From: Calothrix sp. PCC 7103
Lineage (GTDB): Bacteria; Cyanobacteriota; Cyanobacteriia; Cyanobacteriales; Nostocaceae
Assembly (NCBI GenBank): GCA_000331305.1
Contig: KB217478.1
Span: 64,544-112,543 of the forward strand
DNA length: 48,000 bases
Direction of reading: 5' to 3'
The position numbers were made by a program, and so were the translations under genes. Below are positions 3,087 to 39,134 of the stretch, piece after piece. The notes beneath the pieces were generated by a model that saw only the letters and a list, made by a program, of their open reading frames with translations, ran no database searches and was not told the DNA's origin. Every line of letters starts with the position of its first letter. The first letter of the stretch is position 1.

Positions 3087-3512
3087 ATGTCAGCAAAACA
3101 AAAACAACAAACGGTTAGATTTGAGATGCTGCTTACTAAAGAGCAGAATGACTCTTTGGTACAACAAGCGGATTCTCTGGGTATCAGTAAAGCGGAGTTA
3201 ATTAGGCGCCGAATAGCAAAATCCCGCATCAAGAGTATTCCACAGGTAAACTGGCAATGCTACTGGCAGTTATTAAAGATTGCCGAAGATATTAAGTGTA
3301 TTGCTCAAACTCAGAATAATGCTCTGGATAATGGTTCAATACCGCAAGCTATTGACCCTATCATGATTGAGGAATTAATGAAACAAATTTCTCAAATACG
3401 ATTACATTTAATTCTCGGCGCCAAGTCTGCCACCGAGGAGTATTCCCGTGGCGAGCTTGGCGCCAACGCCTCAAATATACAACAGGAGGAAAACGATGAT
3501 TGGGAAGGTTAA
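3087..3512 (+). CDS. MobC-like ribbon-helix-helix mobilisation accessory protein
   Basis: N-terminus KQQTVRFEMLLTKEQNDSLVQQADSLGISKAELIRRRI (RHH pattern) lies directly upstream of, and overlaps, the relaxase gene. The ATG at 3087 is preferred over the TTG at 3060. Confidence 0.6.
   Translation: MSAKQKQQTVRFEMLLTKEQNDSLVQQADSLGISKAELIRRRIAKSRIKSIPQVNWQCYWQLLKIAEDIKCIAQTQNNALDNGSIPQAIDPIMIEELMKQISQIRLHLILGAKSATEEYSRGELGANASNIQQEENDDWEG
3417..3464. repeat. 48-bp GGCGCC-bounded palindromic element, copy 1 (in-frame inside the MobC-like CDS)
   Basis: GGCGCCAAGTCTGCCACCGAGGAGTATTCCCGTGGCGAGCTTGGCGCC. It is an imperfect hairpin and is translated as GAKSATEEYSRGELGA. Confidence 0.75.
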
Positions 3513-4518
3513 AAAAGGTAAACATTTCGCTGGGTTAACAAAATATATTTTGGAAAAAGAAGAAGCGGAACTTGTCTGCACTAACCTTGCGGGAGAGACT
3601 CCTATTGATTTTTATAGACAATTGACGGCGACTCAACAACTTAACCCCAGAGTTAAGTCTCCTGTTAGCCATATCAGTATCAGTTTTGCACAGGGGGAAA
3701 AACCACCAACACAACAATTACAAGAAATTGTAAAAGGCGCCCTTACAGGTATGGGATTTGACAAAAACCTATATTTTGCTGCTACTCATGATGACTGTGA
3801 ACACTTTCACATACATATAGGCGCCAGTCGTATCAATATTGATGGTGAGTGTGTATCTGACTGGTACGATAAGCGGCGATTAGAAAAAGTTTTGAGAAAT
3901 TTAGAATCGCAGTTTAATTTGACACCAGTACCATGTTCTTGGGAAGTAGAACACGCGGCGCCGAATTGTGGTCAGAAACGGCGAATGCGACGAGAACAAG
4001 AAGAGTTTAAAAAAGGGTTACGGCGCCAAGCTCGCCACGGGGAGTATCCCCGGTGGCAGACTTGGCGCCAACAAGCAAATTGTAGTGCATTAGAAAAAAT
4101 CCAAAATACAATAGAAGCTGTCATTAAACCAGAGATGACAATGACTCAATTCGTTCATCAACTTGAGTTAGAAGGTGTAAAAACTCAATTCAAAGTTGAG
4201 AATGATGGGGTAATACAAGGTATCTCTTACTCAGTAGGCTCTGTTGCTTTCCAGGCAAGTAAATTAGGTAGAAACACAAAAGCCTGCACAATTAAAGGAC
4301 TTTTAGCACGAGGTGTCAAAGTTAACTTGGAACAAGATGTAGATGCAATTGTGCTTCGTACTAATCACACAGATTTGTCAGATAAGTTGATTGATAAAAT
4401 CAAGCATCATCCTAACAATTTAGATTTAAATACTTCAGCCCCAAATAATCCGACGCAAACAGCATTGACGCTTGAAAGTAATTTACGTCAGCGCCAGCTT
4501 GGGCTAGAACTTAATTGA
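3496..4518 (+). CDS. relaxase / mobilisation nuclease (MobA/VirD2-type histidine-triad relaxase)
   Basis: N-terminal relaxase domain with HISISF and the HxDx..HxH motif ATHDDCEHFHIHIGASRIN. The ATG at 3496 is preceded by AGGAGG 8 nt upstream. The ORF-track start at 3448 is probably too early. Confidence 0.8.
   Translation: MIGKVKKGKHFAGLTKYILEKEEAELVCTNLAGETPIDFYRQLTATQQLNPRVKSPVSHISISFAQGEKPPTQQLQEIVKGALTGMGFDKNLYFAATHDDCEHFHIHIGASRINIDGECVSDWYDKRRLEKVLRNLESQFNLTPVPCSWEVEHAAPNCGQKRRMRREQEEFKKGLRRQARHGEYPRWQTWRQQANCSALEKIQNTIEAVIKPEMTMTQFVHQLELEGVKTQFKVENDGVIQGISYSVGSVAFQASKLGRNTKACTIKGLLARGVKVNLEQDVDAIVLRTNHTDLSDKLIDKIKHHPNNLDLNTSAPNNPTQTALTLESNLRQRQLGLELN
4022..4069. repeat. 48-bp GGCGCC-bounded palindromic element, copy 2 (in-frame inside the relaxase CDS, inverted relative to copy 1)
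   Basis: GGCGCCAAGCTCGCCACGGGGAGTATCCCCGGTGGCAGACTTGGCGCC. It equals the reverse complement of copy 1 over 20 nt on the left and 19 nt on the right, and differs only in the central 9 nt. Confidence 0.75.
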
Positions 4519-5506: not shown

Positions 5507-5654
5507 GAGTGGGAGAAGGGGAGAGTGGGGGAGTGGGAGAGTGGGGGAGTGGGAGAGTGGGGGAATGAGAAAATGAGAAAATGAGAAGTTATGCGGAGTA
5601 TTGAAATCTTTCCCCCACTCTCCCCTTCTCCCTATCCCCCACTCCTTCACTCCC
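5507..5654. repeat. GGGRGAGT-octamer inverted-repeat element B (G-rich arm 5507-5564, AATGAGAA x3 tandem, C-rich arm 5611-5654)
   Basis: gggagagtgggggagtgggagagtgggggagtgggagagtggggg, then aatgagaaaatgagaaaatgagaa, then cccccactctccccttctccctatcccccactcc. It lies between the stop of 5658..6014 and the start of the response regulator. Confidence 0.8.
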
Positions 5655-5657
5655 TAC

Positions 5658-6014
5658 TTATGCATACGGTTTTAAATGGTGCTGACCAATTTCTGTCCAA
5701 AAATTGCCTTGACCTGATTCATTCAGGTGTTTGCAAAAATTGAAAACGCATGAGATAGAAATCATATCTGTGACAACATGATTTGGAAGAACAACTTGAG
5801 TTGTTTCTACTCCCAGACTCTCAATAAATCGTTTACCCTTCGACTTCGGTTTATGCACTACCGCAGTCATCTTACGAGTTGGTACAACAATCTCTCCATT
5901 CATTAACTTGTAGGCAATGACTTTGAAATTGGACTGCCGAATAATGATTCTTTCTTGGATGTACGTAACGTCAGAAGAATCACCACAACTTTGAGGAAAT
6001 TGTCGTTTGGACAT
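5658..6014 (-). CDS. hypothetical protein (118 aa)
   Basis: ORF only; no motif recognised. Confidence 0.3.
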   Translation of the reverse strand: MSKRQFPQSCGDSSDVTYIQERIIIRQSNFKVIAYKLMNGEIVVPTRKMTAVVHKPKSKGKRFIESLGVETTQVVLPNHVVTDMISISCVFNFCKHLNESGQGNFWTEIGQHHLKPYA

Positions 6015-6900: not shown

Positions 6901-8700
6901 TTACCAAACTTCTTCTTGTTCATGGGTAACTAACTGAATTTCCTCAGTTTGGCTACTAACAGTGGACGGCGCCAAAAGTTGGGAAGCGATGTGTTTTCTC
7001 AAATCAATAGCAGCATCTAACTGATTGATATCAACTTGAGGGGAACGTGCAATTAGTCGTGGACAAAGTTGCTGCTCCCAAAGTTCTTCACTTTTTATGA
7101 TTCGATTGATGTCTGATTGGGGAATAGGAATTGTTAATGGGTAAGGAATAGAACCCTCCCAAGCGGATGAGTAGCCAGGATTGGTAATAACACACTTACC
7201 TTGCGGGAAGCGCATAATCTCATCAGGAGTTATAATAGGCATTGCCTGTAAATTGTCGGTCATTGTTATGGTTTGACCATCTTTAGAATTGCTGATAGAT
7301 TTATTTTTAACAATAATGTCCTTGTTCCCAAAGGACTGAGAAAATTTTTCCGCAGTAGAATAATTGGCAGGGTTATATAAAATTTTGGTACTACAGGCGC
7401 TGGTAATAGCAGCAGCTAAATTTTCTCCATATGCCGAAGCTAGCTGTTCAAGCGACTGAACACCCAATACAAAACAGGCGCCGTTACTTCTATATTCATT
7501 AATCCAATGGGGCAATGCTTTAAGGTACAATGACGGAAGCTCATCAATGAAAATTCCAATTGGGTCAGTACGTGGTGTAGATAAGTTGCTAACGATTGTC
7601 ATATGTAAAGCAGCAGCTAGCAGTGGCCCAACTACGTCGCGTCTAGCATCATCTAATTTAAAAATTAGTATTTGCCGCCCTGATAGTTTGGTAGGTATAG
7701 TACTTTTACCAATAAAACTGGGAAGGAGAGAACGTTGAATGAAACCAGAAAATATTCCCACGGTGGTTGTGTCGATGCTGGCTATAGTTTTTTCGCTATC
7801 TCTAGCTTTGAGATATTGTTGAAACGAAGCTGCAACCCAACGAGAAACTTTTCCTGCTTGTACAGCACTTTGCAGTTTATTAGTAAATTCATCAATCGAC
7901 TGAATACAGTAAACCGTTGCTAAATCTGGACAATCACTGCTTTTAGCTAACTGAATTAAGGCTTTTGCGAGTAAGTCGGCAGCCTTGGAGAAAAACTCAT
8001 CGCCTTTACCACTACCACCAGCGTTTGCATTAATAACTTGTGCAATTTGTGCTGCTGTCACTGCGTCTTCTTGGTTCTCCATGAAATCTAGAGGATTTAT
8101 TACTTCACTATAAGGTTCACCGGGGGCAAATATTCGGACATCATACCCGTACCTAGCTGCAAGCGGCGCCAGTAACTTCATTTGGTCGCCCTTTTTATCG
8201 TAAACAATCAAAGGAAACCCTTGTATCATGCAACTTTCAGCCATACGGTCAATCGTGCCATAAGTTTTTCCTGAACCTGGGGCACCTAATACGAGCGTGG
8301 AACGTTCAGCATGAGGAATCCAAACCGTAGGTGAGGCGCCAAGAAATGTTTGAAAAACGGCGCCTGGTTCTATGAGATTTCCAGAAAACCAGTAACGGGG
8401 AGAACCGCACCAAAAGCAAACTTTATTGTGCTTACGCTCTCGAATTTGTTTTAAGGCTAGATTTGTTGCTGCTACTTTTTCTGTTCGCCCTACAATTCTT
8501 CCGGTAGAAATCTTGCCACTTTTACCATTTCCAAATTGGCTCAACAAAATTAGAAATACTAAACCCCCTAACATCAAGAGCGCTTCAGGATTTGCAAAGG
8601 TTTGAAACAATCCTTGAATATCAAAGCCTGATTTGTAAGAGTTTGCTGGCTGAGTCACTACTTGATACGTAGTTTCATTTGATATAAATTCATGTTTCAT
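6901..8700 (-). CDS. type IV secretion coupling protein (VirD4/TraG/TraD family)
   Basis: N-terminal TM helix (LLMLGGLVFLILL), Walker A LGAPGSGKTYGT, Walker B-like IGIFIDELPSL. About 600 aa. It is the last gene of a leftward operon with overlapping stop/start codons. Confidence 0.8.
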   Translation of the reverse strand: MKHEFISNETTYQVVTQPANSYKSGFDIQGLFQTFANPEALLMLGGLVFLILLSQFGNGKSGKISTGRIVGRTEKVAATNLALKQIRERKHNKVCFWCGSPRYWFSGNLIEPGAVFQTFLGASPTVWIPHAERSTLVLGAPGSGKTYGTIDRMAESCMIQGFPLIVYDKKGDQMKLLAPLAARYGYDVRIFAPGEPYSEVINPLDFMENQEDAVTAAQIAQVINANAGGSGKGDEFFSKAADLLAKALIQLAKSSDCPDLATVYCIQSIDEFTNKLQSAVQAGKVSRWVAASFQQYLKARDSEKTIASIDTTTVGIFSGFIQRSLLPSFIGKSTIPTKLSGRQILIFKLDDARRDVVGPLLAAALHMTIVSNLSTPRTDPIGIFIDELPSLYLKALPHWINEYRSNGACFVLGVQSLEQLASAYGENLAAAITSACSTKILYNPANYSTAEKFSQSFGNKDIIVKNKSISNSKDGQTITMTDNLQAMPIITPDEIMRFPQGKCVITNPGYSSAWEGSIPYPLTIPIPQSDINRIIKSEELWEQQLCPRLIARSPQVDINQLDAAIDLRKHIASQLLAPSTVSSQTEEIQLVTHEQEEVW

Positions 8701-17291: not shown

Positions 17292-18887
17292 TTAGCGAGT
17301 AATTTCAAAGAAACTGTTGAAAAATATAGATACTTTTGTTCCTGTTAGAACGATTGCGACGTTAGGACGGTTTTGCAATTCACTGTCTGCTTTATCCGCA
17401 CGTTTGCTTAAACGCTGTTGCATTGGTTGAAAAAATCCTTCGACTGCTGCGGCCAGAAGATTTGGTTGACGCGCGCCTGTTACAATCGTTTGATTAAACC
17501 CACCATTGGAAATTACTGTTTGAGATTGAGTTTGGTTAAAAACTTGACCTGCACGACCTGCTGCACCAAGTAAACCAATTAGAATATCTTGTTGTGCAAT
17601 GGCGCCACCTCTATCTTGAAGTGATTGTGCAATCAAGGGTTTATTATCTGAACCTCGAATTAAAATTGCATCTCTAGGAATTGATTGCTGTTGAACTTTA
17701 CCAAAGCTGTCGGTATAAACAATTGCAACAACACTTTGTTTTACTAATTTGTTAGCTTCAGACACTGAATCAACCTCTGTAATCAAAATCGTTCCTTTTG
17801 ATAAAGCCACACGACCGTCATTTGATAAAATATCTTCTTCTAACTCAACAGCAAACCGTCCCTGATTTTTATCTTCTTTTGCCCAAATCATTGGTACTAA
17901 TACTTTTGCTTGTGCTGTTGTACCTATTTGAACCTGTAAATTACTTGGGGTATTAGAAGCAGTTTGTGCAAAATTAGAGTATTGAGTATCTGGTTTCTGG
18001 CGGTTAATAATTCCCCATTCCCCTGGTGTTTGAATTTGAGGAGTACTTGTTTCTGTCTGAGTTAGACCACTATTTACGGCAACAGTGGGAATGGATGAAG
18101 GATTATTGATGTTGCTTTTTGAGGTAACGCTATTATTTTGAAAGCTTACTTCTCTGTAAACGGGGGAAGATGAATTGATTGGTGTACCATTTAATGTATT
18201 AGTTCGTTCAACTTTGTTAAGCACAGTCTCGGTTTGTTGAAGTTGCTTATCATCATTAAGAGCAACTGTTTGTTGTCCTAATGTTGCAAGTTCGCTCCAT
18301 TGCTTGAATGGGTCAATTTCTTGTGTTGGTTTACTAACTGGTAAATTTCTAGGTTGTTGACGTGGCGCCGTTTCTCTAATTATTCTTGGTGGTGATGGAA
18401 CTTGAGAACGAATAATTCGAGGCGGTGGCAAGCTGGCAATACGAGTTCGTGCTATGGGCGCCGACTTTTGAACCGTTGGCGATAGTTTTGGTGGTATCGG
18501 TTTCTGTGGCTGTCTCTCTCTTGAGCTTTCTTGGTTACGTAATGCGAGTTCAGCTTTTAGACGCGCTTCTTCTTGACTTTGGGTTTGTGCGAGAGCTTGC
18601 TGTGTTGGTTTTGGTGTAGTAGGAGTTTTTGCGATTTGTTTTGGAGCAAAGAATATTGACCAACACATCCAACCAAAACCCATGACACCACCTACTAAGA
18701 GAGATGCAATGGCGCCTCGAACGAGTGGATTCTCGCTGCTGTCAACTGGTTCGGCTTGTTCTGAGTCACGTTGAATCAAATATTCTTGGTCAATTAAAGC
18801 CACTTGTTCGGGTCGATACCCTGATATTTCTAACTCTTCTTCTGGCGTTATATCATCATCTAATTGTGGACTGTTAAAATTATTCAT
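17292..18887 (-). CDS. VirB10/TrbI-like bitopic protein
   Basis: Cytoplasmic N-terminus, one TM helix (LLVGGVMGFGWMCWSIFF), a Pro-rich linker (SLPPPRIIRSQVPSPPRIIRETAPRQQPRNLP) and a C-terminal beta-rich domain. This is the hallmark VirB10 architecture. Confidence 0.5.
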   Translation of the reverse strand: MNNFNSPQLDDDITPEEELEISGYRPEQVALIDQEYLIQRDSEQAEPVDSSENPLVRGAIASLLVGGVMGFGWMCWSIFFAPKQIAKTPTTPKPTQQALAQTQSQEEARLKAELALRNQESSRERQPQKPIPPKLSPTVQKSAPIARTRIASLPPPRIIRSQVPSPPRIIRETAPRQQPRNLPVSKPTQEIDPFKQWSELATLGQQTVALNDDKQLQQTETVLNKVERTNTLNGTPINSSSPVYREVSFQNNSVTSKSNINNPSSIPTVAVNSGLTQTETSTPQIQTPGEWGIINRQKPDTQYSNFAQTASNTPSNLQVQIGTTAQAKVLVPMIWAKEDKNQGRFAVELEEDILSNDGRVALSKGTILITEVDSVSEANKLVKQSVVAIVYTDSFGKVQQQSIPRDAILIRGSDNKPLIAQSLQDRGGAIAQQDILIGLLGAAGRAGQVFNQTQSQTVISNGGFNQTIVTGARQPNLLAAAVEGFFQPMQQRLSKRADKADSELQNRPNVAIVLTGTKVSIFFNSFFEITR

Positions 18888-18897: not shown

Positions 18898-19632
18898 CTA
18901 TTTATTTGGAATAAATTCAGAAATTTTTGTTATTTCTAAACCCGCACTTCTAATTTCATATAATTGTTTTTCTAAGACAGAAGCGTTGTTTTCGGGCGGT
19001 TGGGGTATATCTACAGCTTGCAAAGTAAACGTGCGATTTATTGCTATTTCTTCATCGGCGCCACCATTCATATTTACTAGTACTCTTGTAGCAACCATAT
19101 CTACTTCCCACTCACCCAATCTGGTTTGACGAGGATTTGAAAGGTAGGAAATTATAATCTTTGAGCGAACTTGACCGTTAAATATTCGTTGTGGCGTGAT
19201 TTCGGCTAATTGTTGTAATAGAGGTTGTCGGAATCCACCTTTTCCTTGCTGTATTAAAAACGAGCCAAAATAAGCATTTGTTGTAACACGCTTTCCCTTA
19301 CCAATATCCCGTCCTTTATCTTGTTCTTTAGTGGCGCTAATTACACCATCCCAATTAAAAGTTAAATTTGCCCAGTGTCTGACGGTATTTTTTATTACTT
19401 CAGGGTAGCGATATAAATAATCTTGCTCAGATATAACTAAAGCACGACCATTGACCAACTGTACAAAAGTTGTTTTTCTTTCTGAGAGTTGATTTACTTT
19501 AAAACTCAAGAACAATATGAATAAAAAGCTTAATAAACTAAAAGTAGTCAGCCCAATAAAACACAGTGGCAGAATATCTTTAGAATCAAGCAATATTTTC
19601 GGTCTTTTAACCTTTTGTAAAGACTTTAACAT
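18898..19632 (-). CDS. VirB8-like bitopic protein (architecture only)
   Basis: Short N-terminus, a single TM helix (LCFIGLTTFSLLSFLFILFLSF), a ~190-aa periplasmic domain, and a position between the B6-like and B10-like genes. Confidence 0.35.
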   Translation of the reverse strand: MLKSLQKVKRPKILLDSKDILPLCFIGLTTFSLLSFLFILFLSFKVNQLSERKTTFVQLVNGRALVISEQDYLYRYPEVIKNTVRHWANLTFNWDGVISATKEQDKGRDIGKGKRVTTNAYFGSFLIQQGKGGFRQPLLQQLAEITPQRIFNGQVRSKIIISYLSNPRQTRLGEWEVDMVATRVLVNMNGGADEEIAINRTFTLQAVDIPQPPENNASVLEKQLYEIRSAGLEITKISEFIPNK

Positions 19633-27730: not shown

Positions 27731-28017
27731 AAGTTAGACTGTATCTCGGCTCAACCTCTTCTCGACTGGCGCCGAAAGAATTTCTAGACTACGCATCATA
27801 AAATGAAGTGTTGGTGCCGTGCGCCTAAATATTTTTCCTATTTTTTCAAAACCTGCGTAAAAACTCCCGGTCTGATTCGTACAAGGGTTTAGAGAAGTAA
27901 AGGAGTTAGACATTATGCTTTGATAAACAAGCGATAGTCTGACTATCTAATTAACTCCAAATATGCCGAGCGCTAAATATAGCCATCACTTATCAATTCT
28001 AAACACTACTCATATTT

Positions 28018-29052
28018 ATGATACATCAATCAGTAGCAAGCTGTATTGGACAAACTCCACTCGTTCAATTAAATCGCTTATTTCCTTACAAGGGAATCAA
28101 TGTTATCGCCAAACTAGAATTTTTAAATCCAGGTGGTAGCGTCAAAGACCGTCCCGCGCGCTTTATTGTTGAACAAGGATTACAAAATGGAACTATTGAT
28201 CAAAAAACCCACCTAATTGAAAGTACTTCTGGCAATTTAGGTATCGCTTTAGCAATGGTAGCAAAAGTCTATAACCTGCAATTCACCTGTGTAGTAGACC
28301 CAAAAATTTCGGCAACGAATTTGCAAATACTCCACTTGTTAGGAGCAAATATTGAGATGGTTCATGTGCGTGATGACCAAGGTGGCTATCTCAAATCTAG
28401 AATTCAACGGGTTCAAGAACTATTGCACGATATCCCCCAAAGTCTCTGGATTAACCAATATGCCAACGATTTGAACTGGCAGGCACATTACTACGGCACG
28501 GGTAGCGAAATGGTTGCAAGCCTTGATGGTTCTATCGACTGTCTCATCCTCCCTGTTAGCACTACAGGAACAATGTTGGGAATTTCCCGCCGTCTGCGCT
28601 CAGAATTTCCAGGGCTTAGGGTAATTGCCGTTGATGCCGTAGGTTCTGTCATTTTTGGGACACCTTCAGGACAACGAGAGATACCTGGTATTGGGGCTAG
28701 TCGAGTACCCGAACTTAGTAAGCAGATTGAGGTTGATGAGGTTATCTACGTTAATGACTGGGAGTCTGCACAGGGTTGCCGCGCTCTGGTCAAATATGAA
28801 GGCATCTTTGCTGGTGGTTCTTCTGGGTCTGTAATCGCCGCTATTCAAAAACTTCTTCCCAGTGTGCCTTCTCCTTATCGCATCCTGACTCTTTTCCCCG
28901 ACCGAGGAGAACGCTATCTAAATATGGTCTACGACGACAACTGGGTTGGACAGCTACATCATTCAGATGCACAACCCAATTTATCCACTTTTACCACTAA
29001 GCTGCCCACGTTCAACAAAGCTGAACTCAAAAACCTAAATCTATTGACTTAA
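28018..29052 (+). CDS. sbnA: SbnA-type PLP-dependent enzyme (2,3-diaminopropionate biosynthesis, N-(2-amino-2-carboxyethyl)-L-glutamate synthase)
   Basis: PLP-lysine motif NPGGSVKDRPA plus blocks I recall as SbnA-specific: HLIESTSGNLGIALAM, TCVVDPKISATNL, WINQYANDLNWQAHY, PGIGASRVPE, YEGIFAGGSSGSVIAAI. It is paired with an SbnB-like gene. Confidence 0.8.
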   Translation: MIHQSVASCIGQTPLVQLNRLFPYKGINVIAKLEFLNPGGSVKDRPARFIVEQGLQNGTIDQKTHLIESTSGNLGIALAMVAKVYNLQFTCVVDPKISATNLQILHLLGANIEMVHVRDDQGGYLKSRIQRVQELLHDIPQSLWINQYANDLNWQAHYYGTGSEMVASLDGSIDCLILPVSTTGTMLGISRRLRSEFPGLRVIAVDAVGSVIFGTPSGQREIPGIGASRVPELSKQIEVDEVIYVNDWESAQGCRALVKYEGIFAGGSSGSVIAAIQKLLPSVPSPYRILTLFPDRGERYLNMVYDDNWVGQLHHSDAQPNLSTFTTKLPTFNKAELKNLNLLT

Positions 29053-29061
29053 AAGAGAAAT

Positions 29062-30097
29062 ATGCAACAACATCACTCTACCGCCAAAATACCAACAATT
29101 CTCTACCTGAGCAAATCTGACATTATCCAACTTGGTGGAAATTCCTCTCATCTATATATAGAAGCTGTCAATCATGCTCTGACTCTCCATGCTAAAGGCG
29201 AAATTGTCCAGCCACTCAAGCCTTATTTACGTTGGCGTGGAAATGAAAACCATATTGCTGACCGAATTATTGCGATGCCAGCTTATCTAGGTGGCGAGAG
29301 TTCTATAGCTGGTTTGAAATGGGTTGGGAGCAAGCATGATAACCCATCTCGATCTGGTTTGGAACGAGCCAGCGCGCTCATTGTTCTGAATGATACTCAG
29401 ACTCATTACCCTCTCGCGATTATGGAAGGAAGCCTGATTAGTGGTATGCGAACAGCGGCAGTTACCGCAGTCGCAACTCGCCACTTAGCTCGAAAAAATT
29501 TTAGTGATGTCACATGCATTGGCTGCGGTCCAATTGCTCGGATGCAACTGCTGACACTAATTGAGCAATTTCCATCCATTACTACCATCCACCTTTTTGA
29601 CCTTAACCCCTTTGCAGCAAAGAATTTAGTGGAAACTTTGCACCAATCCTTCCCTGATTTGAAATATCAAATTGCTTCAGATGCCCAAAAAGCTGTGCGT
29701 CAAGGCGAGGTAGTAATCACTTGTACGGTCGCAGATAAACCCTATAAGTAGGTACGACTGGCTGCAAAAAGGAACTTTCCTCAGCAATGTTTCGATTATG
29801 GATGTACATAAAGAGGTTTTCCTCAATGCTGACAAGGTAATAGTGGATGATTGGGAACAATCAAACCGAGAGAAAAAAGTGATTAATCAATTGGTTTTAG
29901 AAGGACGCTTCTCGCGCGAGCAACTCCATGCAGAACTGGGTGAGATACTTCTTGGTCGTAAACCTGGTCGAGAGTCAGATGAAGAAATTATCCTCCTCAA
30001 TCCAATGGGAATGGCAATTGAAGACATAGCTTGTGCCCAAAGCATTTATCAAAAAGCTGTTGCAAAACAAGTTGGCATCCGCTTAAACCTCGGTTGA
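29062..30097 (+). pseudogene. sbnB: SbnB-type ornithine-cyclodeaminase-family dehydrogenase, split by a frameshift at ~29746-29752
   Basis: ORF 29062..29751 ends ...VITCTVADKPYK*. The +1 frame continues ..ISRYDWLQKGTFLSNVSIMDVHKEVF.. into ORF 29798..30097. Together they span a full-length SbnB-like protein (HIADRIIAMP, KWVGSKHDNP, LLNPMGMAIEDI). Confidence 0.75.
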
Positions 30098-30270
30098 TAA
30101 GGAACATTGACAAGGCGTTGCACAAAACAGGGCTTTTGTTTTGGACGGGTAAAGCAAAATTCATAAAATAAACTGAAAAGCATACATAAGAATAATTGAA
30201 ATGGTACTCACAATGCTAGTCTGCAAGCAAACATATTTTGTCCAAAGTCCAATCAAAAAGATTTTAGCAG

Positions 30271-33200
30271 TTATTCTATTAGAACAAAATCAGAAATGAT
30301 AGTTTCAGGATATCGAACTAACTGCTCAATAATTACTTCATAACTCTTCAAAAAGCGCTCTATCATCTCAGCAGTAAAAGTTGTTGTGCTGTAACAAGCA
30401 TGAAATTTGATCGCCTGGGTTGTTTCATTAGGATAATCAGCATAAAGCTCCAGAGGGACATCTTGCTCACTCCAGAGACCACGATCGGAGCTAATAGTTA
30501 ATTCCTCACACTTGAGTATTTGACCCAACCAATTTTTTGCTGGAACTAATACAAAGGTAACAGTTCGCAGGATTTTTAGCTTGTTTTCCACTGGTTCCCA
30601 AATTTTTTCTGAGGGAATTGCATAGGTTAGTCCCTCAGTAACAGTTTTTCTAACCTGTCCTAGCAAAGAAATAGCCGTCTGGTTGCAGTTTAATTGAATA
30701 CCTAGTGGCAAATCACTAATGAAACAACCGAGTAATCGTTCGATTTCCAGTATACTGCGATTAGCTATTGTGCCGACTACTAGGATATCTGTTTGTTTGC
30801 TCCATTTGTGCAACAGAATGTTTAGTGCCGTTAGCAGGACGATAAAAGGTGTGACACTACAAGCGTGGCTGAGGGAAGCGATATTGTTGGTCAAACTTAC
30901 AGGCAGTGAGAAATGATATTCGTTAGCAAAAGACCTATCTGGTGTAGACTGGATTGCAGGAAAAAGATCGAGGGAGGTGGGAAAGTTCGCTAGGTGCTGT
31001 TGCCAGTAGGGTAAGTGGGCTGACAAAACTTCCTCACTAAAATTTTTGCGCTGCCAGATCGCAAAATCTGCATATTGGAGAGGTAGTTCTGGCAGAGGTG
31101 AAGGTTTACCTACCAAGAAGTTACTGTAGATGATTTCGAGTTCTTGTAATAAAATGCCACAAGACCAACCATCGGTGATAATATGATGCATGGCAATAAG
31201 TAGCCAATGCTCCTCCTCGGACAATTGAATCAAGATAGTTTTGATAGGAGGTGCGACCGTCAGGTCAAATTCGCGATTCATCGCCTCTCTGAAAATTCTG
31301 TATGCCTCAGCTTCTTTGCTCATCTGCGAACAGAGATACTGTAGATCGATGAACTGAAACGGTAGGGTAAAAGATGGTGCAATTTTCTGGGTGGGCTGCT
31401 CTTTAACAATAGGAAAGGTTGTTCGCAGAATTTCGTGACGACGGATAATTTCGTTGAGACTCCGCTCTAATACTGTGCGAGAAAGCGTACCTGTCAAACG
31501 TAGAGCCATTGAACTATTAGCTGCACACTTACCAGCAAATTTATGCTCTAAACACCATATATAATCTTGAGCAAAAGAGAGTGGGATAACCTGGGTTCTC
31601 GCTTGAGGCGACACTGCTGGTATCTTTCTAAATGAATAACCTTGCGTATTAATGGTGAGGGTAGAATCGATCAATTGACTTAAAGCGGCGATTGTTGGTA
31701 ATTGAAACAGACAACTGAGGGGTAAGTTAATCTCGAATTTTTCGCAAATCCGAGAAATAATTTGAACCGCTAGTAACGAATGACCGCCCAACTCAAAGAA
31801 GTTATTGTAAATGCCTACTTTTTTAAGTGCTAATACCGAAGCCCAAATGCTCGCTAGTATCTCCTCAACCGGAGTGCGGGGAGCGACAAAATTAAGTTCG
31901 AGTTCAGGTTGGTATTTTGGGGCTGGTAGAGCGCGGCGGTCTACTTTACCATTTGGTGTCAGCGGTAAGGCATTGAGTGTTACAAAAGCACTTGGCACCA
32001 TATAATCTGGCAGTTGCTCTTTCAAGAAATCGCGTAAATCGCTTATTATATTAGCTAGTTCTTTATTAGGGACGATATAAGCTATTAATTGTTTGCTGCC
32101 TACAATATTTTCTCTTACGATGACTACAGTTTCTTTTACGGCTGAGTGTTTAGCCAGTAAAGATTCAATCTCACCCAGTTCTATACGGAAACCGCGAATT
32201 TTGACCTGATTGTCAATTCGACCTAGAAACTCAATGTTACCATCCGGTAAGTAACGCACTAAGTCGCCAGTTTTATAAAGGCGAGAACCAGACTTTTGAT
32301 TAAAAGGATTGGGAATAAATTTTTCAGCAGTCAAATCAGGAAGATTAAGATAGCCGCGCGCTAGTCCATCACCACCAATATACAGTTCTCCTGAAACGCC
32401 GATGGGTACAGGCTGCAATTTTTTATCTAGCACGTAAGCCTGCGTGTTAGCAATGGGGCGCCCAACGGGGACATTATCTTCTACGTGGTTAAAATCTGTG
32501 ATTGTGTAGCAGCAAGTAAAAGTTGTGTTCTCCGTTGGACCATAACCATTGATTAGAGTACACCCTTTCAGTTCTTGAAGAGCCTTCTTTACATGAGGAA
32601 CAGATAAGACATCCCCACCAGCTAGAAGTTGACGCACATTTTTTAAGCTTTCAAGCTGCTCATCTACCATTAGGTGAAATAAACCTGCTGTAAGCCACAG
32701 TGTCGTTATCTGGTATTGTACAAGAGCTTGTCCCAACTCTTGCAAAGATGGTTTGTGTGAGGGCATAATCACTAGCAACCCACCGTTGAGGAGGCTGCCC
32801 CAAATCTCAAAAGTTGAGGCATCAAAAGATATGGGAGCAAGCTGAAGGAAAATTTCTTCTGCACCGAAATTTGCATAGTTGGTTGCTTTGACTAACCGCA
32901 CTACGCCCCTATGCATGATGGCTACTCCCTTGGGCTTCCCTGTTGACCCGGAAGTGTAAATGAGATAAGCCAGATTATTGAATGCCGTTTTACTATAAGG
33001 ATTTTCCTCGCTATGTTGGGCAACCTCTTCCCAGTCGGAATCCAAGCAGATAATGCGTTCCGAGCATTGGGGAAGTTTCTCCATTAACTGGGTCTGGGTT
33101 AGCAACACTTGCACTTTTGAGTCTTTTAGCATGAAAGCCAAGCGCTTAGAGGGATATTCTGGGTCAAGCGGAACGTAGGCGCCGCCAGCTTTGAGAATAC

Positions 33201-36200
33201 CAAGCAATCCCACCACCATTTCCAACGAACGCTCTACGCAAATACCTACCAAAACTTCTGGTTCAACGCCTATTGCTTGTAGATAATGCGCCAGCTGATT
33301 CGCTTTTGCATTCAATTCTCGGTAGGTTAGTTGCTCACCCTCAAATACTACAGCTATTGCGTCAGGCGTTAGTTCCACCTGCTCCTCAAACAACTGATGG
33401 ATATACTTATCCTGGGGATATTGTGTTTGAGTATTGTTCCATTCCACCAACAATTGCTGCCGCTCGGCTTCTGTAAGCATTGGCAATTCAGAAATTTGCG
33501 CTTTAGGATTAGTAACAATTCCTGACAATAATGTTCGGAAATGTTCTATCATCCTTGAGATAGTGCTAGCATCAAATAAATCTGTATTATACTCCAAGCG
33601 ACCAATAATGCCCTCTAGTCTAGAGTCGAGTTCGAGGGTTATATCGAACTTTGCTGTATCAGTTTGGATATCCAACTGACTTATCGTCCAGTCCACACTT
33701 AAAGATGGCACTGGGGGTTCCAAAACAAATGCCACCTGGAACAGAGGGTTGTGGCTTAGGTTTCGTTCCGGTTGGAGTGTTTCTACTAGCTTTTGGTAAG
33801 GCAAGTCTTCATGGGCATAAGCTTCTAAAGTTACCGAACGCACCCGAGAAAGTAGCTGTTGAAAACTAGGGGAACCTGAAAGATCGGTACGCAAAACCAA
33901 AGTGTTTAGGAAATACCCCATTAGCTTTTCAATCTCTGGTCGATTGCGTCCCGCGCTGACGGTGCCTACAACAATATCATCTTGCCCAGTGTAGCGGTAG
34001 AGCAAAGTTTTAAATGCTGCTAGCAACGTCATATAGAGTGTGACCCCCTCCTGCTGTGAGAGAGTTTTTAGTGCCTCTGTCAGGTTTTTGGATAGCGCGA
34101 AACAAAGTCTTGCGCCCCGAAAAGTTTGTTTTACTCTTCGGGGGCGGTCGTAAGGCAACTGTAATATGGACAAGTCAGTTAACTGTTGCTTCCAGTAGTT
34201 AAGCTGACTTTGAAGAATTTCTTTTGTAAACCACTGCCTTTGCCAACTAGTAAAATCCGCGTACTGTATGGGTAGTTCTGTAAGTGGCGAGGGTTTGGCT
34301 CTAGAGAAAGCTTCGTAGAGTGTTGCAAGTTCTGGAAGAAACACGCTGTAGAGTGAAACACCATCAATTATAATGTGGTGAAAGGTTAAGAATAGCCTGT
34401 AATCCTCGTCCGCTAGCCGCATCAAGGTTGCTCGTAGCAATGAGCTAGAACTTAGGTCAAACGCCTGCTTTGCTTCCCTAGTTGCCAACCGCAAAGCTTC
34501 TGACTCTCGTCTGTCTTGTGGAAATTGCCGTAAATCCACCACTGCTAGATTGAAAGTAGTGGGTGAATCTATAACCTGAACTGGTTGTCCATCAACCGTG
34601 ATAAAGCGTGATCGCAGACTTTCGTGACGCTGAATAATTTTGTTAAGAGCTTTTTCTAAGGCGGTTACGTCAATAGCACCCCCTAAGCGAATAGTAAAAG
34701 GTTCATTATAAACAGGGGTATCGGGTTGCAATTGTGCAAGGAACCACAGTTGCTCTTGTCCCCATGAAAGAGGCAAGTTTTGGTTTCTGGAAACTCTTTG
34801 GATAGAGGAAGCAAAATTTTTTTTGTTTTCCCAATCAACTGCCTCTATGCTCGTGGCTAATTTGGCTATAGTTAGGGATGCAAACAGGCTATCCACAGAT
34901 AACTTTACCTGTAAAGTGTCATACAACCTGCTTATGATTTGAACTGCTAGTAAGGATTGTCCACCCAACTCCAAAAAATTGTCGTGGATACCAATTTGCC
35001 CAAGTCCTAGCACTTCGTTCCAAATTCTTACCAACACTTTCTCAATCGTGGTACGAGGTGCAACAAAATTTTCTAGCCGTTCGAGTCTTTTTATATCAGG
35101 TGCTGGTAGTGTGAGCCGATCTACTTTTCCATTAGGCGTTAACGGTAAAGCATCAAGCAGTACAAAATAAGAAGGCACCATGTAATCGGGCAGTTTTCCT
35201 TGTAAAAAGCTGCGGATATGGGGTATCAGCTTTTGAACAACGTACCCCTCCAACTCTTTTTGTGCTAATGTTGCTAAGTTTTCTGTATTTCCAACAACAT
35301 ATGCCACTAAGCGTTTGTCGTCCGGTATATCAGAACAGACTGTAACAACAGCATCCAGCACGTTAGGATGTTGCCTCAGTACTGCCTCAATTTCGCCTAA
35401 TTCGATACGAAAACCGCGAATTTTGACTTGATTGTCAATACGACCTAAGAACTCAATGTTACCATCGCGATTGTAGCGTGCTAAGTCTCCAGTTTTATAC
35501 AGGTGCCCATCAGATAAATTACTGAAGGGGTTGGGGATAAATTTTTCATTGGTTAAATCAGGACGGTTCAGGTAGCCGCGCGCTAGCCCATCACCACCAA
35601 TGTATAATTCTCCTAGAACGCCAACGGTTACAGGCTGCAACTTTTCGTCTAACAAGTAAACTTGCGTGTTGGCTATAGGGCGACCAATGGGGACATAATC
35701 TTCTACGTGGTTAAAATCTGTGATTGTGTAGCAGCAAGTAAAAGTTGTATTCTCGGTTGGACCATAACCATTGATTAGAGTACATCCTTTTAGTTCTTGA
35801 AGAGCCTTCTTGACATGAGGAACAGATAAGACATCGCCCCCAGCTAGAAGTTGACGCACATTTTTTAAGCTTTCAAGCTGCTCATCTACCATCAGGTGAA
35901 ACAAACCTGCTGTAAGCCACAGTGTCGTTATCTTGTATTGTATGAGAGCTTGTCCCAACTCTTGCAAAGATGGCTTATGTGGGGGCATAACCACTAACAG
36001 TCCACCATTGAGAAGGCTGCCCCAAATCTCAAAAGTTGAGGCATCAAAAGATATGGGAGCAAGCTGGAGGAAAATTTCTTCTGCACCGAAGTTGGCATAG
36101 TTGGTTGCTTTAACTAACCGCACTACCCCTCTATGCATGATGCTTACACCTTTGGGCTTACCCGTCGAGCCTGATGTATACATCACGTAAGCTAAGTTAT

Positions 36201-36753
36201 TTGGCGTCACTTCGCTATAAGGATTTTCCTCTCTATATTGCGCGATTTCTGACCAGTCAGAATCCAAGCATATGATACGCTGCAAATGTTGAGGAAGTTT
36301 CTCTATAAACTGCATTTTAGTTAGCAGTATTTGCACAGAGGCATCTTCTGCCATAAAAGCCAAGCGTTCAAAGGGGTATGTCAAGTCTAGAGGAACGTAG
36401 GTGCCACCAGCTTTAAGGATAGCTAATAGCCCAACAATCATCTCTAAAGAGCGCTCTATACAAATACCAACCAAAACTTCTGGTTCAACCCCCAGTGATT
36501 GAAGGTAGTGCGCTAACTGGTTGGCTCTTGCATTCAGTTCCTTGTATGTTAGCTGCTTCCCTTCAAATACTAGTGCTACACTCTTCGGCGCTCGCTCAAC
36601 AGTCGCTTCAAAGAGTTCATGAATGCACTTATCATTAGGGTAATCACTTTGAGTATTATTCCACTCAACTAATAACTTATGCAGTTCTGCTTCTGTTAAA
36701 AGGTGTTCTGACTTTGCTACGGGAATTTCTGAATTATTAAAAGATTTAGTCAT
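30271..36753 (-). CDS. bimodular non-ribosomal peptide synthetase, domain order A-T-C-A-T-C (no TE, no starter C)
   Basis: Two adenylation domains (LAYVMYTSGSTGKPKG / LAYLIYTSGSTGKPKG, YKTGDL, GRIDNQVKIRGFRIELGEIE, NGKVDR). Two carrier domains (LGGQSL, LGGHSL). Two condensation domains (HHIIIDGVS, HHIITDGWS). Confidence 0.95.
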   Translation of the reverse strand: MTKSFNNSEIPVAKSEHLLTEAELHKLLVEWNNTQSDYPNDKCIHELFEATVERAPKSVALVFEGKQLTYKELNARANQLAHYLQSLGVEPEVLVGICIERSLEMIVGLLAILKAGGTYVPLDLTYPFERLAFMAEDASVQILLTKMQFIEKLPQHLQRIICLDSDWSEIAQYREENPYSEVTPNNLAYVMYTSGSTGKPKGVSIMHRGVVRLVKATNYANFGAEEIFLQLAPISFDASTFEIWGSLLNGGLLVVMPPHKPSLQELGQALIQYKITTLWLTAGLFHLMVDEQLESLKNVRQLLAGGDVLSVPHVKKALQELKGCTLINGYGPTENTTFTCCYTITDFNHVEDYVPIGRPIANTQVYLLDEKLQPVTVGVLGELYIGGDGLARGYLNRPDLTNEKFIPNPFSNLSDGHLYKTGDLARYNRDGNIEFLGRIDNQVKIRGFRIELGEIEAVLRQHPNVLDAVVTVCSDIPDDKRLVAYVVGNTENLATLAQKELEGYVVQKLIPHIRSFLQGKLPDYMVPSYFVLLDALPLTPNGKVDRLTLPAPDIKRLERLENFVAPRTTIEKVLVRIWNEVLGLGQIGIHDNFLELGGQSLLAVQIISRLYDTLQVKLSVDSLFASLTIAKLATSIEAVDWENKKNFASSIQRVSRNQNLPLSWGQEQLWFLAQLQPDTPVYNEPFTIRLGGAIDVTALEKALNKIIQRHESLRSRFITVDGQPVQVIDSPTTFNLAVVDLRQFPQDRRESEALRLATREAKQAFDLSSSSLLRATLMRLADEDYRLFLTFHHIIIDGVSLYSVFLPELATLYEAFSRAKPSPLTELPIQYADFTSWQRQWFTKEILQSQLNYWKQQLTDLSILQLPYDRPRRVKQTFRGARLCFALSKNLTEALKTLSQQEGVTLYMTLLAAFKTLLYRYTGQDDIVVGTVSAGRNRPEIEKLMGYFLNTLVLRTDLSGSPSFQQLLSRVRSVTLEAYAHEDLPYQKLVETLQPERNLSHNPLFQVAFVLEPPVPSLSVDWTISQLDIQTDTAKFDITLELDSRLEGIIGRLEYNTDLFDASTISRMIEHFRTLLSGIVTNPKAQISELPMLTEAERQQLLVEWNNTQTQYPQDKYIHQLFEEQVELTPDAIAVVFEGEQLTYRELNAKANQLAHYLQAIGVEPEVLVGICVERSLEMVVGLLGILKAGGAYVPLDPEYPSKRLAFMLKDSKVQVLLTQTQLMEKLPQCSERIICLDSDWEEVAQHSEENPYSKTAFNNLAYLIYTSGSTGKPKGVAIMHRGVVRLVKATNYANFGAEEIFLQLAPISFDASTFEIWGSLLNGGLLVIMPSHKPSLQELGQALVQYQITTLWLTAGLFHLMVDEQLESLKNVRQLLAGGDVLSVPHVKKALQELKGCTLINGYGPTENTTFTCCYTITDFNHVEDNVPVGRPIANTQAYVLDKKLQPVPIGVSGELYIGGDGLARGYLNLPDLTAEKFIPNPFNQKSGSRLYKTGDLVRYLPDGNIEFLGRIDNQVKIRGFRIELGEIESLLAKHSAVKETVVIVRENIVGSKQLIAYIVPNKELANIISDLRDFLKEQLPDYMVPSAFVTLNALPLTPNGKVDRRALPAPKYQPELELNFVAPRTPVEEILASIWASVLALKKVGIYNNFFELGGHSLLAVQIISRICEKFEINLPLSCLFQLPTIAALSQLIDSTLTINTQGYSFRKIPAVSPQARTQVIPLSFAQDYIWCLEHKFAGKCAANSSMALRLTGTLSRTVLERSLNEIIRRHEILRTTFPIVKEQPTQKIAPSFTLPFQFIDLQYLCSQMSKEAEAYRIFREAMNREFDLTVAPPIKTILIQLSEEEHWLLIAMHHIITDGWSCGILLQELEIIYSNFLVGKPSPLPELPLQYADFAIWQRKNFSEEVLSAHLPYWQQHLANFPTSLDLFPAIQSTPDRSFANEYHFSLPVSLTNNIASLSHACSVTPFIVLLTALNILLHKWSKQTDILVVGTIANRSILEIERLLGCFISDLPLGIQLNCNQTAISLLGQVRKTVTEGLTYAIPSEKIWEPVENKLKILRTVTFVLVPAKNWLGQILKCEELTISSDRGLWSEQDVPLELYADYPNETTQAIKFHACYSTTTFTAEMIERFLKSYEVIIEQLVRYPETIISDFVLIE
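30274..31596 (-). other. C-terminal condensation-type domain (HHIITDG at aa 1856-1862) in the position normally held by a TE
   Basis: IPLSFAQDYIW ... HHIITDGWS ... YADFAIWQ. It is followed directly by the stop codon. Confidence 0.7.
31669..31884 (-). other. NRPS carrier domain T2 (Ser ~aa 1659)
   Basis: FFELGGHSLLAVQIISRI; the Ser codon is at 31777-31779. Confidence 0.7.
31933..33444 (-). other. NRPS adenylation domain A2 (approx. aa 1104-1607), near-duplicate of A1
   Basis: The hand-read specificity residues are the same as in A1 (D-A-F-W-L-G-G-T-F-K). The DNA is ~90-95% identical to A1 by eye over several hundred bp, at an offset of 3222 bp. Confidence 0.7.
33499..34776 (-). other. NRPS condensation domain C1 (HHIIIDG at aa 792-798)
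   Basis: LPLSWGQEQLWFL ... HHIIIDGVS ... YADFTSWQ. Confidence 0.7.
34849..35061 (-). other. NRPS carrier domain T1 (Ser ~aa 600; unusual GGQS instead of GGHS/GGDS)
   Basis: FLELGGQSLLAVQIISRL; the Ser codon is at 34954-34956. Confidence 0.7.
35110..36666 (-). other. NRPS adenylation domain A1 (approx. aa 30-548)
   Basis: Core motifs A1-A10 are present. The 10-residue code read by hand is D-A-F-W-L-G-G-T-F-K. Confidence 0.7.
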
Positions 36754-37231
36754 TAAATTAAGTGTAAGTTTAATTTATAAAATAAAGTTGCAAGAGAGTA
36801 TATTAGGTTTTATTTATCTAATAAAACCCTGTTGATAATTACTATGAGTAGAGCAGTAGCTATCGTTCCTTTGGATTCAAGTTATTGTTACAACATACGT
36901 TTACCTCGCTGGTTATTTTTTGCTGAAATAGCACTGTCAAATAAGCGTCTCTTCCTGTAGTTTGGGGTACAGGGCACGCTTGTAGCTAATCCCAAAGCGC
37001 AAACACAATTTTCTTTGAGTTTTGCACTGAGAACTAGTTTAAACTCCAGTAGGTTAAGTAATGGTCATTTCTATGTTGGTCATTGATTAACTTAATGTAG
37101 CTGTTTTGCCTTGTGGAATAGTGTAGTCATTGGGGTGTATGTATTAGTACTTAACTACCAATGACTCTAAACAGGATTTTGGGCAAAATCCTTACACAAC
37201 GAGCTTTTAAGTCTCAGTATATTTTTAAAAC

Positions 37232-37435
37232 TCAAACCGGATTCCTATATATTGTAGTGTGATACTTTATACTTATAATTTTCTTAGTTACTGATTTTGT
37301 TTCTCCTACAGGTATATCTGTGTCTCCTTTCTGAAAATTAAGGACAATGGACTTATCCGCGTTATTGGTGAATGGAGTCTGAGTAGGTTTCACTGTTCTA
37401 TCAGTTGGGGTATCTGTATAGATTATTTTACTCAT
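37232..37435 (-). CDS. small hypothetical protein (67 aa)
   Basis: ORF only, upstream of the NRPS on the same strand. Thr/Lys-rich with no recognised motif (not MbtH-like). Confidence 0.25.
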   Translation of the reverse strand: MSKIIYTDTPTDRTVKPTQTPFTNNADKSIVLNFQKGDTDIPVGETKSVTKKIISIKYHTTIYRNPV

Positions 37436-37576
37436 ACTGGTTGCTGCTTTTTAGTTCAAGTTAAATTTCGGTTAAATATCCGATTGATACATAAATTTAT
37501 TTGCATTTTTGATGCTATGCATTCAAGGCAAGAGGCCGCCATTGGCGACCGTCTACACATCTATATGATTATAGTT

Positions 37577-38194: not shown

Positions 38195-38841
38195 TGATTT
38201 ATCTTCCTTAAAGTTATTGGAGTTTTTTGTTCTAAAGGTAAGGGTTGTAGATAATATTGCTTGAATTACAAAAATATATTCAGATTTGGAATTTATCAAT
38301 ATATTTAGAGATAAGTTAATCCAATCTATCTATAATCTAAATCTAGCTCAAGCATAAATTATCTTTTTTCTACTTACAGCAGCCATTTTGTACAAGTTGC
38401 TGTAGGTCTTTTGCCCCTTTTAGTAGCTTTGGAAAGCAAAACAGAAACTAAAAGGTTAGCAAGCTGAAAAAATGTCCGTGAATAAATTTAGGCATTTAAC
38501 AAGGACACCTTTTCTTTTTGTGCTGTGCATGTCGAAAAGATTTATCTGCTTACCTGTATCATTTTTATTCTTAATAACACGCTCCCAACACCGAGTAATC
38601 ACTGAAATATTTAGTTTACTTGTAGCAGAGTATTTACGGAGCATCTACTAATTTTTGTTTTTTTTACTAAGTAAATATATTTAAATAGCGATAATATCCG
38701 TTTAGAACTAAGTCAAGTAGGAGGCATGTATAGAAGGAGAAAATATTTGATTTCACTTTAAGTAGGTGGGCAAAAATAAAGCACACTGGTTTTGTTCTGC
38801 TTAAAAGCGCTAAAGTCAAACTGTGAGAGGATTACAGCAGT

Positions 38842-39116: not shown

Positions 39117-39134
39117 TTTACATTCTGTTACATA
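39117..39134 (+). promoter_or_regulatory. HLR1-type (RpaB-box) motif 2 with conserved downstream promoter-like segment
   Basis: TTTACATT-CT-GTTACATA is a perfect HLR1 match. It is followed by TTCCACTCACCTACCTAATTACAAA and lies 275 bp downstream of motif 1. Confidence 0.5.

Follow-up and report, generated by a model that had tools for sequence, protein, structure and literature searches.

Two 48-bp palindromes, each bounded by GGCGCC, lie in opposite orientation inside two neighboring mobilization genes of Calothrix sp. PCC 7103, and the question raised by this locus is how the same short sequence came to be in both. The DNA analyzed was a stretch of 48,000 nt (contig KB217478.1, positions 64,544 to 112,543; hereafter ‘the window’, in whose own coordinates window positions are given). 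The two copies are members of a non-autonomous family of 42-nt hairpin modules, low in copy number and dispersed across heterocystous cyanobacteria. Each is one precise 42-bp insertion into the center of a pre-existing site of the GGC-GCC type, followed by AA (GGCTCC in the mobC orthologue L062). Labels of this form denote loci retrieved around matches or orthologues, of up to about 14.5 kb each. The copies and their host genes are:

3087 to 3512, plus strand: MobC/NikA-like relaxosome accessory gene (141 aa; Pfam NikA-like PF21983), which hosts copy 1.
3417 to 3464, no strand: copy 1 with both half-sites of the split target (GGC before, GCC after), a 48-bp GGCGCC-bounded unit.
3420 to 3461, minus strand (family orientation): copy 1 module, a 42-nt hairpin, GCC-AAGCTCGCCAC-GGGAATACTCCTCG-GTGGCAGACTT-GGC.
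3496 to 4518, plus strand: MobA/VirD2-type relaxase gene (340 aa; Pfam PF03432, E = 2.6e-30, residues 17-142), which hosts copy 2.
4022 to 4069, no strand: copy 2 with its flanking target halves, a 48-bp GGCGCC-bounded unit.
4025 to 4066, plus strand (family orientation): copy 2 module, a 42-nt hairpin with the flipped loop GGGGAGTATCCCCG.

An earlier reading of the window by its letters only (the sequence-only reading) had placed the copies at 3417-3464 and 4022-4069 and described them as imperfect hairpins, matching by reverse complement over arms of 20 and 19 nt and differing in the central 9 nt. The letters were exactly as noted. Per strand there was one occurrence of GGCGCCAAGTCTGCCACCG (the 19-nt arm) and one of GGCGCCAAGCTCGCCACGGG (the 20-nt arm), solely in these two copies, and neither arm was expected by chance even when 3 mismatches were permitted (dinucleotide shuffles). 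The reverse complement of copy 1 differed from copy 2 in the central 9 nt only. Folding gave a long hairpin on both strands of both copies, as RNA (-34 to -40 kcal/mol) and also as DNA, with z-scores of -4.6 to -7.9 across the RNA and DNA folds of both copies. No further or divergent copy was found in the 48 kb by nhmmer or by a covariance model run with filters off. The translations GAKSATEEYSRGELGA (MobC/NikA-like protein) and RRQARHGEYPRWQTWR (relaxase) were also correct. Copy 1 is read in frame close to the C-terminus of the former, and copy 2 adds 14 aa, RQARHGEYPRWQTW, directly behind the nuclease domain of the latter. Judged from alignment variability, the inserts may lie in surface linkers.

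To reveal the state of these genes before insertion, orthologues were compared. Relaxase homologues were found (n = 97) and 14 were aligned with the window protein; exactly the same 14 residues were missing from 14/14, including a 94%-identical one and that of Dulcicalothrix desertica PCC 7102. MobC orthologues of 127 aa were likewise without their 14 aa, which bore out the proposal that both segments were in-frame, lineage-specific insertions. At the DNA level, the empty site of copy 2 read GGGTTAC-GGCGCC-AACAAG (L060 and L061), and the window and Calothrix sp. PCC 7716 (L054) had the filled site, GGCGCC, 36 nt and GGCGCC. Empty sites of copy 1 read CTC-GGCTCC-AAC (L062) and GTT-GGCGCC-AAA (Rivularia IAM M-261, L063). 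It had been suggested that the insertion was of 48 bp, or of 42 bp if one GGCGCC belonged to the target. The second alternative was correct: the inserted DNA is 3420-3461 and 4025-4066, and one GGCGCC was already present.

Copy 1 was found in the window, L061 and L060, was decayed in PCC 7716 and was not in L062 or L063; copy 2 was found in the window and PCC 7716 only. One insertion each, copy 1 first and then copy 2, accounts for this distribution across the window, L060-L063 and PCC 7716. The mobC copy of PCC 7716 is decaying (L054 6581-6608), its left arm having changed from GCCAC to CTGAA and one flanking hexamer to GGTGCC, and in that genome the relaxase copy has stayed intact. A further target stands unoccupied in the window:

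19326 to 19342, minus strand: unoccupied target AATT-AGCGCC-ACTAAAG in a 244-aa gene of the type IV secretion system (T4SS) cluster, of which the orthologue has the filled site.

In that orthologue (258 aa, PCC 7716, L024) a third module was located exactly at the equivalent of 19326-19342. TnpB orthologues contained two different 14-aa inserts at different sites, each site being empty in the other gene. Five comparisons of filled and empty sites were made (relaxase, mobC, two TnpB sites, and the T4SS-cluster gene of L024 vs. the window), and in each the difference was exactly 42 nt. The module was also found inside itself: a nested 42-nt module, with compensatory GTCGG/CCGAC in its stem, occupied the loop of copy 1 in D. 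desertica PCC 7102 (L060 2880-2925) and lengthened the MobC of that strain to 155 aa. Further copies, which the sequence-only reading had expected of a mobile element, were present in relatives (L024 and L054 of Calothrix PCC 7716, and L077).

For the family search, the pattern AAGCTCGCCAC-N8-18-GTGGCAGACTT was scanned, and the scope was the window and its relatives, 185,579 species genomes, JGI metagenomes, IMG/VR viral contigs and a plasmid collection. The scan returned 54 DNA stretches from the species genomes and 31 from the metagenomes. Three further matches were on IMG/VR viral contigs, two of them with exact arms and the typical 14-nt spacer, and the third with the 17-nt spacer of chance matches. 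BLAST of the region against plasmids gave the hairpin itself as the sole match, within unrelated genes of Nostoc plasmids, and there was no match in plasmid pNPUN01 of Nostoc punctiforme, a member of the searched collection. All matches except a few chance ones were from Nostocales (Calothrix, Rivularia, Nostoc, Atlanticothrix, Cyanomargarita, Tolypothrix and others). Exact-arm matches in Corynebacterium and Verrucomicrobia, and on related metagenome and viral contigs, were set aside as chance or coding matches because their flanks were unpaired and their spacers differed. About 60 independent copies were obtained, with 1-5 exact-arm copies per genome and ends that were usually GCA/TGC or GCG/CGC. 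Similarity between loci was limited to about 36-50 nt, and the contexts are therefore independent. No Rfam family was found at the hairpin in a scan of six loci, and the arm and loop sequences were not found in the literature searched.

The module has the form GCN-AAGCTC-GCCAC, 12-14 nt of inner stem and loop, GTGGC-AGACTT-N'GC, with length variants of 40-41 nt; in its general form the outermost pairing starts G-N-N and closes N'-N'-C. Outer pairs 1-3, outside AAG/CTT, were Watson-Crick in 50/50, 49/50 and 46/50 unique copies, with switching among A-T/G-C/C-G and between C-G/T-A. Pairing at position 4 was no better than expected. As pairing ends at pair 4, in agreement with the 42-nt indels, the unit is 42 nt. 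Across the 38 unique 42-mers, 96.8% of cells were paired and both sides had changed in 7 pairs (44 cells), a level of covariation reached by 0/500 shuffles and not approached by slid registers. GCCGG/CCGGC or GTCGG/CCGAC substituted for GCCAC/GTGGC in mid-stem variants, with AAGCTC and AGACTT retained. The CTC/AGA segment is made of three transition-type oppositions (G.T or A.C), and because of it the hairpin has a polarity: the covariance model R1 scored copy 1 at 57.5 bits on the minus strand vs. 16.8 bits on the plus strand, and copy 2 at 67 bits on the plus strand vs. 28.7 bits on the opposite one.

With the arms fixed, the loop was present in two orientations (about 20 ATACT and 6 AGTAT), and the bulged base in both positions. 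The loop of copy 1 is in the majority orientation, and that of copy 2 is flipped. Minute loop inversions are typical of DNA hairpins and are known from chloroplast non-coding DNA, and we infer that the flipped loop of copy 2 is an inversion of this kind. The retention of the plus-strand word GGAGTAT in both copies had been pointed out earlier; the word is there, but what recurs in the family is the loop inversion and not a conserved word. The Glu-Tyr codons common to both copies are a by-product of the flip. A sister family, B (GCG-AAATGYGCCAC...GTGGWCACTTT-CGC), has the inner core in common with the present family, A. Head-to-tail tandem arrays of family A (L057), or of B and A together, abut at a CGC-GCG junction, some of them within TnpB and tape-measure-like open reading frames (ORFs); the array and family B loci are L052 3389-3501, L057 5110-5356, L002 1505-1581, L020, L027 and L037.

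About 60% of the copies were within ORFs of at least 150 aa, inside which all six frames were used, and intergenic copies were present too. Both orientations relative to the host gene occurred (22 vs. 16). The consensus was stop-free in all six frames, as were 28/38 unique 42-mers compared with 7% of shuffles. As 42 nt amount to 14 codons and the consensus has no stop, host proteins stay intact; variants of 41 nt truncate host ORFs. The tolerance of coding sequence proposed for the two copies was upheld by the use of six frames within long ORFs, as in the Rickettsia palindromic elements (RPEs). The element acts at the nucleic-acid level.

Host proteins were named through Pfam, record annotation or window analysis. 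Most identifiable host genes belong to mobile DNA (plasmids, conjugative elements, insertion sequences and prophages). TnpB was hit at 7 independent sites. The other hosts were an IscB-like RRXRR+HNH protein, IS630, IS4 and DDE_5 transposases, a phage-type integrase, a DUF3854 protein, Baseplate_J, a plasmid UvrD-like helicase, a C5-methyltransferase, and the window relaxase and MobC. One non-mobile host was identified, a predicted metal-dependent hydrolase, and several host ORFs were without a Pfam match. In-frame hairpins stood at varied positions in TnpB (OrfB_IS605 / Cas12f-like TNB) and in one IscB-like gene (L009, L058, L036, L020, L026, L032, L025, L050 and L045).

GGCGCC was counted 74 times in the window vs. 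3.2 expected (1.5 per kb, 23-fold over), and HIP1 (GCGATCGC) once. This is the GGCGCC-type signature of the Calothrix PCC 7103 group, in which GGCGCC is over-represented and HIP1 nearly gone (PMC4390886). GGCGCC is the alternative highly iterated palindrome (HIP) of Calothrix PCC 7103 and D253, and HIP gain has been attributed to biased substitution (PMC4390886). A HIP is a hexamer propagated through substitution; the hairpin module is distinct from it and merely takes HIP sites as targets. Richness in GGCGCC (1-4 per kb) with no HIP1 was also seen beyond PCC 7103 in several Calothrix, Dulcicalothrix and Rivularia genomes (L004/L010, L008, L014, L018, L053, L055 and L056 from Calothrix NIES-4105, HK-06 and FI2-JRJ7; L060; L063), and the remaining 74 retrieved loci, mostly other Nostocales, had means of 0.03 GGCGCC and 0.6 HIP1 per kb. 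Within the window, 27800-43300 is HIP-poor, with 2 GGCGCC in about 15.5 kb vs. about 1.5-3 per kb elsewhere and GC from 0.31 to 0.44, and contains a 2160-aa ORF (30271-36753). This suggests recently acquired DNA on which the HIP pattern of the host has yet to be imposed.

At the insertion sites there was no direct target duplication. The flanking triplets were inverted and covarying (CGTG...CACG, CGTA...TACG), and a classical target-site duplication was rejected because of this inversion. Flanks read C and G around the junction at 31/60 sites, and at 18/60 independent sites a flank repeated at least 5/6 terminal bases of the module (null 1.2%, P ~1e-20). Sites in the GGCGCC lineage read GGCGCCAA in 4/4 cases, compared with 17% of the remaining window GGCGCC sites (P ~9e-4), and three independent insertions at single (G/A)GC(G/T)CC sites were of GCC/GGC-ended copies only. 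Most family members end GCA/TGC, GCG/CGC, GTG/CAC or GTA/TAC and are in HIP1-type genomes. In other GGCGCC-rich Calothrix genomes, copies with GCA, GCG or GGA ends lie outside HIP sites, so that GGCGCC is a target of convenience and no part of the element. The same copies weakened a GCC-ended lineage subfamily as the sole explanation. The element had been proposed to target or to carry GGCGCC. Targeting stood, in that the window insertions are at pre-existing GGCGCC or GGCTCC; carriage did not, as GGCGCC is not intrinsic and most members have other ends.

The closest precedent for the 42-nt module, going by reported descriptions, is the small dispersed repeats (SDRs). SDR4, SDR5 and SDR6 of Nostoc and Anabaena, attributed to Elhai and colleagues (Genome Res, 2008), are reported to be tiny hairpin mobile modules with compensatory changes and nesting. 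SDR5 reportedly inserts precisely inside HIP1, SDRs are given as 21-27 nt with hundreds of copies per genome, and RNA-mediated mobility was reportedly proposed for them. On that description the present module is like SDRs in being a very small non-coding hairpin of heterocystous cyanobacteria only, in its compensatory changes (96.8% of cells paired, 7 two-sided pairs), in its nesting in its own copy (D. desertica) and its tandem arrays, and in lying inside the iterated palindrome of the genome, here GGCGCC, as SDR5 does in HIP1. It is unlike them, as there described, in length (42 nt, variants 40-41, vs. 21-27 nt), in number (1-5 copies per genome vs. hundreds), in lying mainly within coding sequences of mobile-DNA genes, and in not being in pNPUN01 of N. 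punctiforme.

RPEs, reportedly described by Ogata and colleagues in 2000, are said to be palindromic insertions of about 100-150 bp, specific to Rickettsia and in frame within genes. The likeness to RPEs drawn in the sequence-only reading holds as an analogy: both are selfish palindromes in frame inside genes, with open frames, an added peptide and a surviving host protein. However, the module is 42 nt and limited to Nostocales, its sequence is unrelated, RPEs are not tied to an iterated palindrome, and no homology is claimed. The 46-bp optional GC-cluster palindromes in yeast mitochondrial var1, said to have been reported by Wenzlau and Perlman in 1990, are also analogous only. They are similar in being hairpins rich in GC, about 40-46 bp long and set in an AT-rich genome, and in being optional, in frame and without an encoded transposase, but belong to another domain, differ in sequence and have short AT-rich target duplications.

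An imperfect hairpin with conserved irregularities and no target-site duplication is likewise a feature of repetitive extragenic palindromes (REP/REPIN) moved by REP-associated tyrosine transposases (RAYT; Y1 HUH), of IS200/IS605 ends, and of palindrome-associated transposable elements (PATEs). REP/REPIN and IS200/IS605 hairpins are recognized as single-stranded DNA (ssDNA), and the IS200/IS605 target is read through base pairing with the element. Unlike REP, the module has no 5' GTAG or CGTC tag, ends GCNAAG on both strands, and is intragenic and low-copy where REP is extragenic and high-copy. Unlike an IS200/IS605 PATE, it is a single 42-nt hairpin rather than a left-end and a right-end hairpin. 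On the feature by which PATEs are judged, the module had no direct duplication, and its terminal hexamer was repeated (at least 5/6 bases) in a flank at 18/60 sites, most sites sharing only C and G. Integron attC sites (R''/R' RYYYAAC...GTTRRRY) form cassette arrays by intI, whereas the module ends GCNAAGCTC...AGACTTN'GC and sits within ORFs of unrelated genes. Classical miniature inverted-repeat transposable elements (MITEs) have terminal inverted repeats and a direct duplication, whereas the flanking triplets here are inverted and covarying. The module is not a member of the RPE, yeast GC cluster, REP/RAYT, IS200/IS605 PATE, attC or classical MITE families.

The descriptive core (precise 42-nt insertions, a selected hairpin, an end-like target bias, nesting and tandem arrays) is very probably right. 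As to mechanism, the preferred reading, given a probability of roughly 0.5, is that a folded strand, probably ssDNA, is recognized by a trans-acting enzyme and integrated where the target matches the terminal hexamer. The active form would be the folded single strand, most likely of DNA. A trans-acting protein would read the helix geometry together with the invariant CTC/AGA triple-wobble segment, and the best guess for this enzyme would be a HUH/Y1-type single-strand transposase or a related nuclease. The target would be chosen for repeating the terminal hexamer of the module itself (GCNAAG); because of this repeat, the right junction would form a short palindrome after integration and no target-site duplication would be left. 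GGCGCC, the hyper-abundant HIP of this Calothrix lineage, would offer many sites of the GGCGCCAA form.

Several points weigh against this mechanism. No mobilizing enzyme was identified, and an active element would be expected at far more than 1-5 copies per genome. The copies may all be old and owe their spread solely to hitch-hiking on mobile DNA, and the strong stems may persist through intrastrand templating instead of selection. The conservation of the arms was partly imposed by the search pattern, and for the host genome the survey of copies covered the window only, together with relatives. About 70% of sites show little junction identity past C and G, and the nested insertion in L060 has a junction identity of 1 nt only. 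A bolder form of the mechanism, and a rather unlikely one, is that the module is a self-targeting ‘nano-transposon’ whose terminal hexamer sets the site by identity or complementarity and which prefers mobile-element genes (TnpB, IscB, transposases and relaxases). If that were true, swapping two covarying end bases would retarget the module.

Enzyme-free spread is a possible if doubtful rival. The module would be copied by template switching (copy-choice) or short-patch gene conversion through 5-8 nt of identity (GGCGCCAA, GTAAAG), and the sole role of the hairpin would be to promote polymerase stalling. Identity of at least 5/6 nt at 18/60 junctions, GGCGCCAA at all GGCGCC-lineage sites, inverted rather than direct flanks with no target-site duplication, tandem arrays that meet exactly at the repeated end sequence, the very low copy number, and the origin of copy 2 at 557 bp from the older copy 1 with the same GCC/GGC ends all agree with such copying. 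Yet usable microhomology is missing at most sites, the ambiguity at the nested insertion is 1 nt, and near-identical modules occur across different genera. CTC/AGA is moreover invariant beside covarying stems, which points to a sequence-specific recognition that enzyme-free copying does not need. Mobility by RNA, with the hairpin transcript reverse-transcribed or acting as template or guide for insertion, is unlikely. The size class, compensatory hairpin, nesting and HIP insertion resemble those reported for SDRs, and each of the three conserved ‘mismatches’ is a G.T or A.C opposition, a wobble geometry in RNA on either strand. However, orientation was not biased with respect to host-gene transcription (22 vs. 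16), G-U pair types were few in the covariation table, and the copies had no poly-A or other retro-insertion signature, no Rfam family match and no reverse transcriptase linked to them.

The two window copies stand in inverted orientation on either side of the mobC-relaxase junction, and the family is strongly associated with DNA that has single-stranded stages (conjugative and IS200/IS605-type elements) and has a conserved, covarying structure. A functional cis-element under selection, rather than a selfish one, would have these properties, whether as a relaxase/oriT-like hairpin, a single-strand initiation or promoter site, or an RNA-processing site. It is nonetheless quite improbable, given that close orthologues of this conjugative module function with one or both copies missing, that copy 1 is decaying in Calothrix PCC 7716, that 41-nt variants truncate host ORFs, and that the modules occupy unrelated positions in unrelated genes in both orientations and all frames. 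Every insertion into GGC-GCC turns one GGCGCC into two, and according to the sequence-only reading the element would give a mechanistic handle on how the palindrome spreads. This was not borne out, and a role of the element as the vehicle that multiplies GGCGCC in the genome is very improbable: modules touch only 4/74 window GGCGCC, GGCGCC or a one-off variant pre-existed at the targets, other GGCGCC-rich genomes hold GCA/TGC, GCG/CGC or GGA/TCC ends away from HIP sites, and the published view is HIP gain by biased substitution (PMC4390886). Finally, the 14-16 aa could represent a protein motif (ARHGEYPRWQT), inherited from an ancestor or reached by convergence, or the copies could be alike by chance; a frame reading ARHG(E/D)(Y/T)PRWQT is indeed shared by the relaxase, a UvrD-like protein (L001) and a hypothetical protein (L004). 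This is hardly credible, as the segment is precisely missing from orthologues, copies are also intergenic and no chance arm matches are expected; the protein motif was rejected because six frames are used across the family.

Around the two host genes, the mobC product matched PF21983 at E = 3e-5, under the gathering cut-off, and its homologues carry the MobC annotation. Both genes belong to a conjugative T4SS cluster, which also encodes a coupling protein (6901-8700) and a TrbI-like protein (17292-18887). The end of mobC and the start codon of the relaxase overlap by 17 nt (3496-3512), with AGGAGG preceding the start, and the overlap was conserved in all orthologous loci examined. Two G-rich tandem-repeat blocks of heptamer type (GGAGTGG / GGGAGAG), each with an inverted C-rich array of its own behind it, lie at 242-396 and 5516-5659 (arms of 55 and 53 nt, 89% and 77% complementary). 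They flank the mobC-relaxase-regulator segment and resemble the short tandemly repeated repetitive (STRR) sequences of heterocystous cyanobacteria. A 20-nt inverted repeat, 95% complementary (AGCAGGAAATTGCCAGGAAT / ATTCCTGGCAAATTCCTGCT; spacer 33 nt), lies at 1627-1699, upstream of a Uma2-family gene (2054-2755).

Sites before and after insertion are now available at single-nucleotide resolution for a mobile DNA module that is among the smallest known, in five pairs together with tandem arrays and one nested case. The link between SDR5 and HIP1 is extended to an alternative palindrome, GGCGCC, and the target rule, by which the flank repeats the terminal hexamer, is testable and could expose the machinery that moves SDR-like elements. 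In alignments of relaxases and of TnpB, the 14-aa inserts give rise to lineage-specific indels. Short hairpin insertions remodel conjugative-element proteins and TnpB/IscB nucleases with the reading frame kept. If the self-targeting form of the mechanism were true, the module would rank as the smallest mobile element that both tolerates coding sequence and follows a guide-like rule in choosing its targets, and it would be a hyper-parasite living on the mobilome of cyanobacteria.

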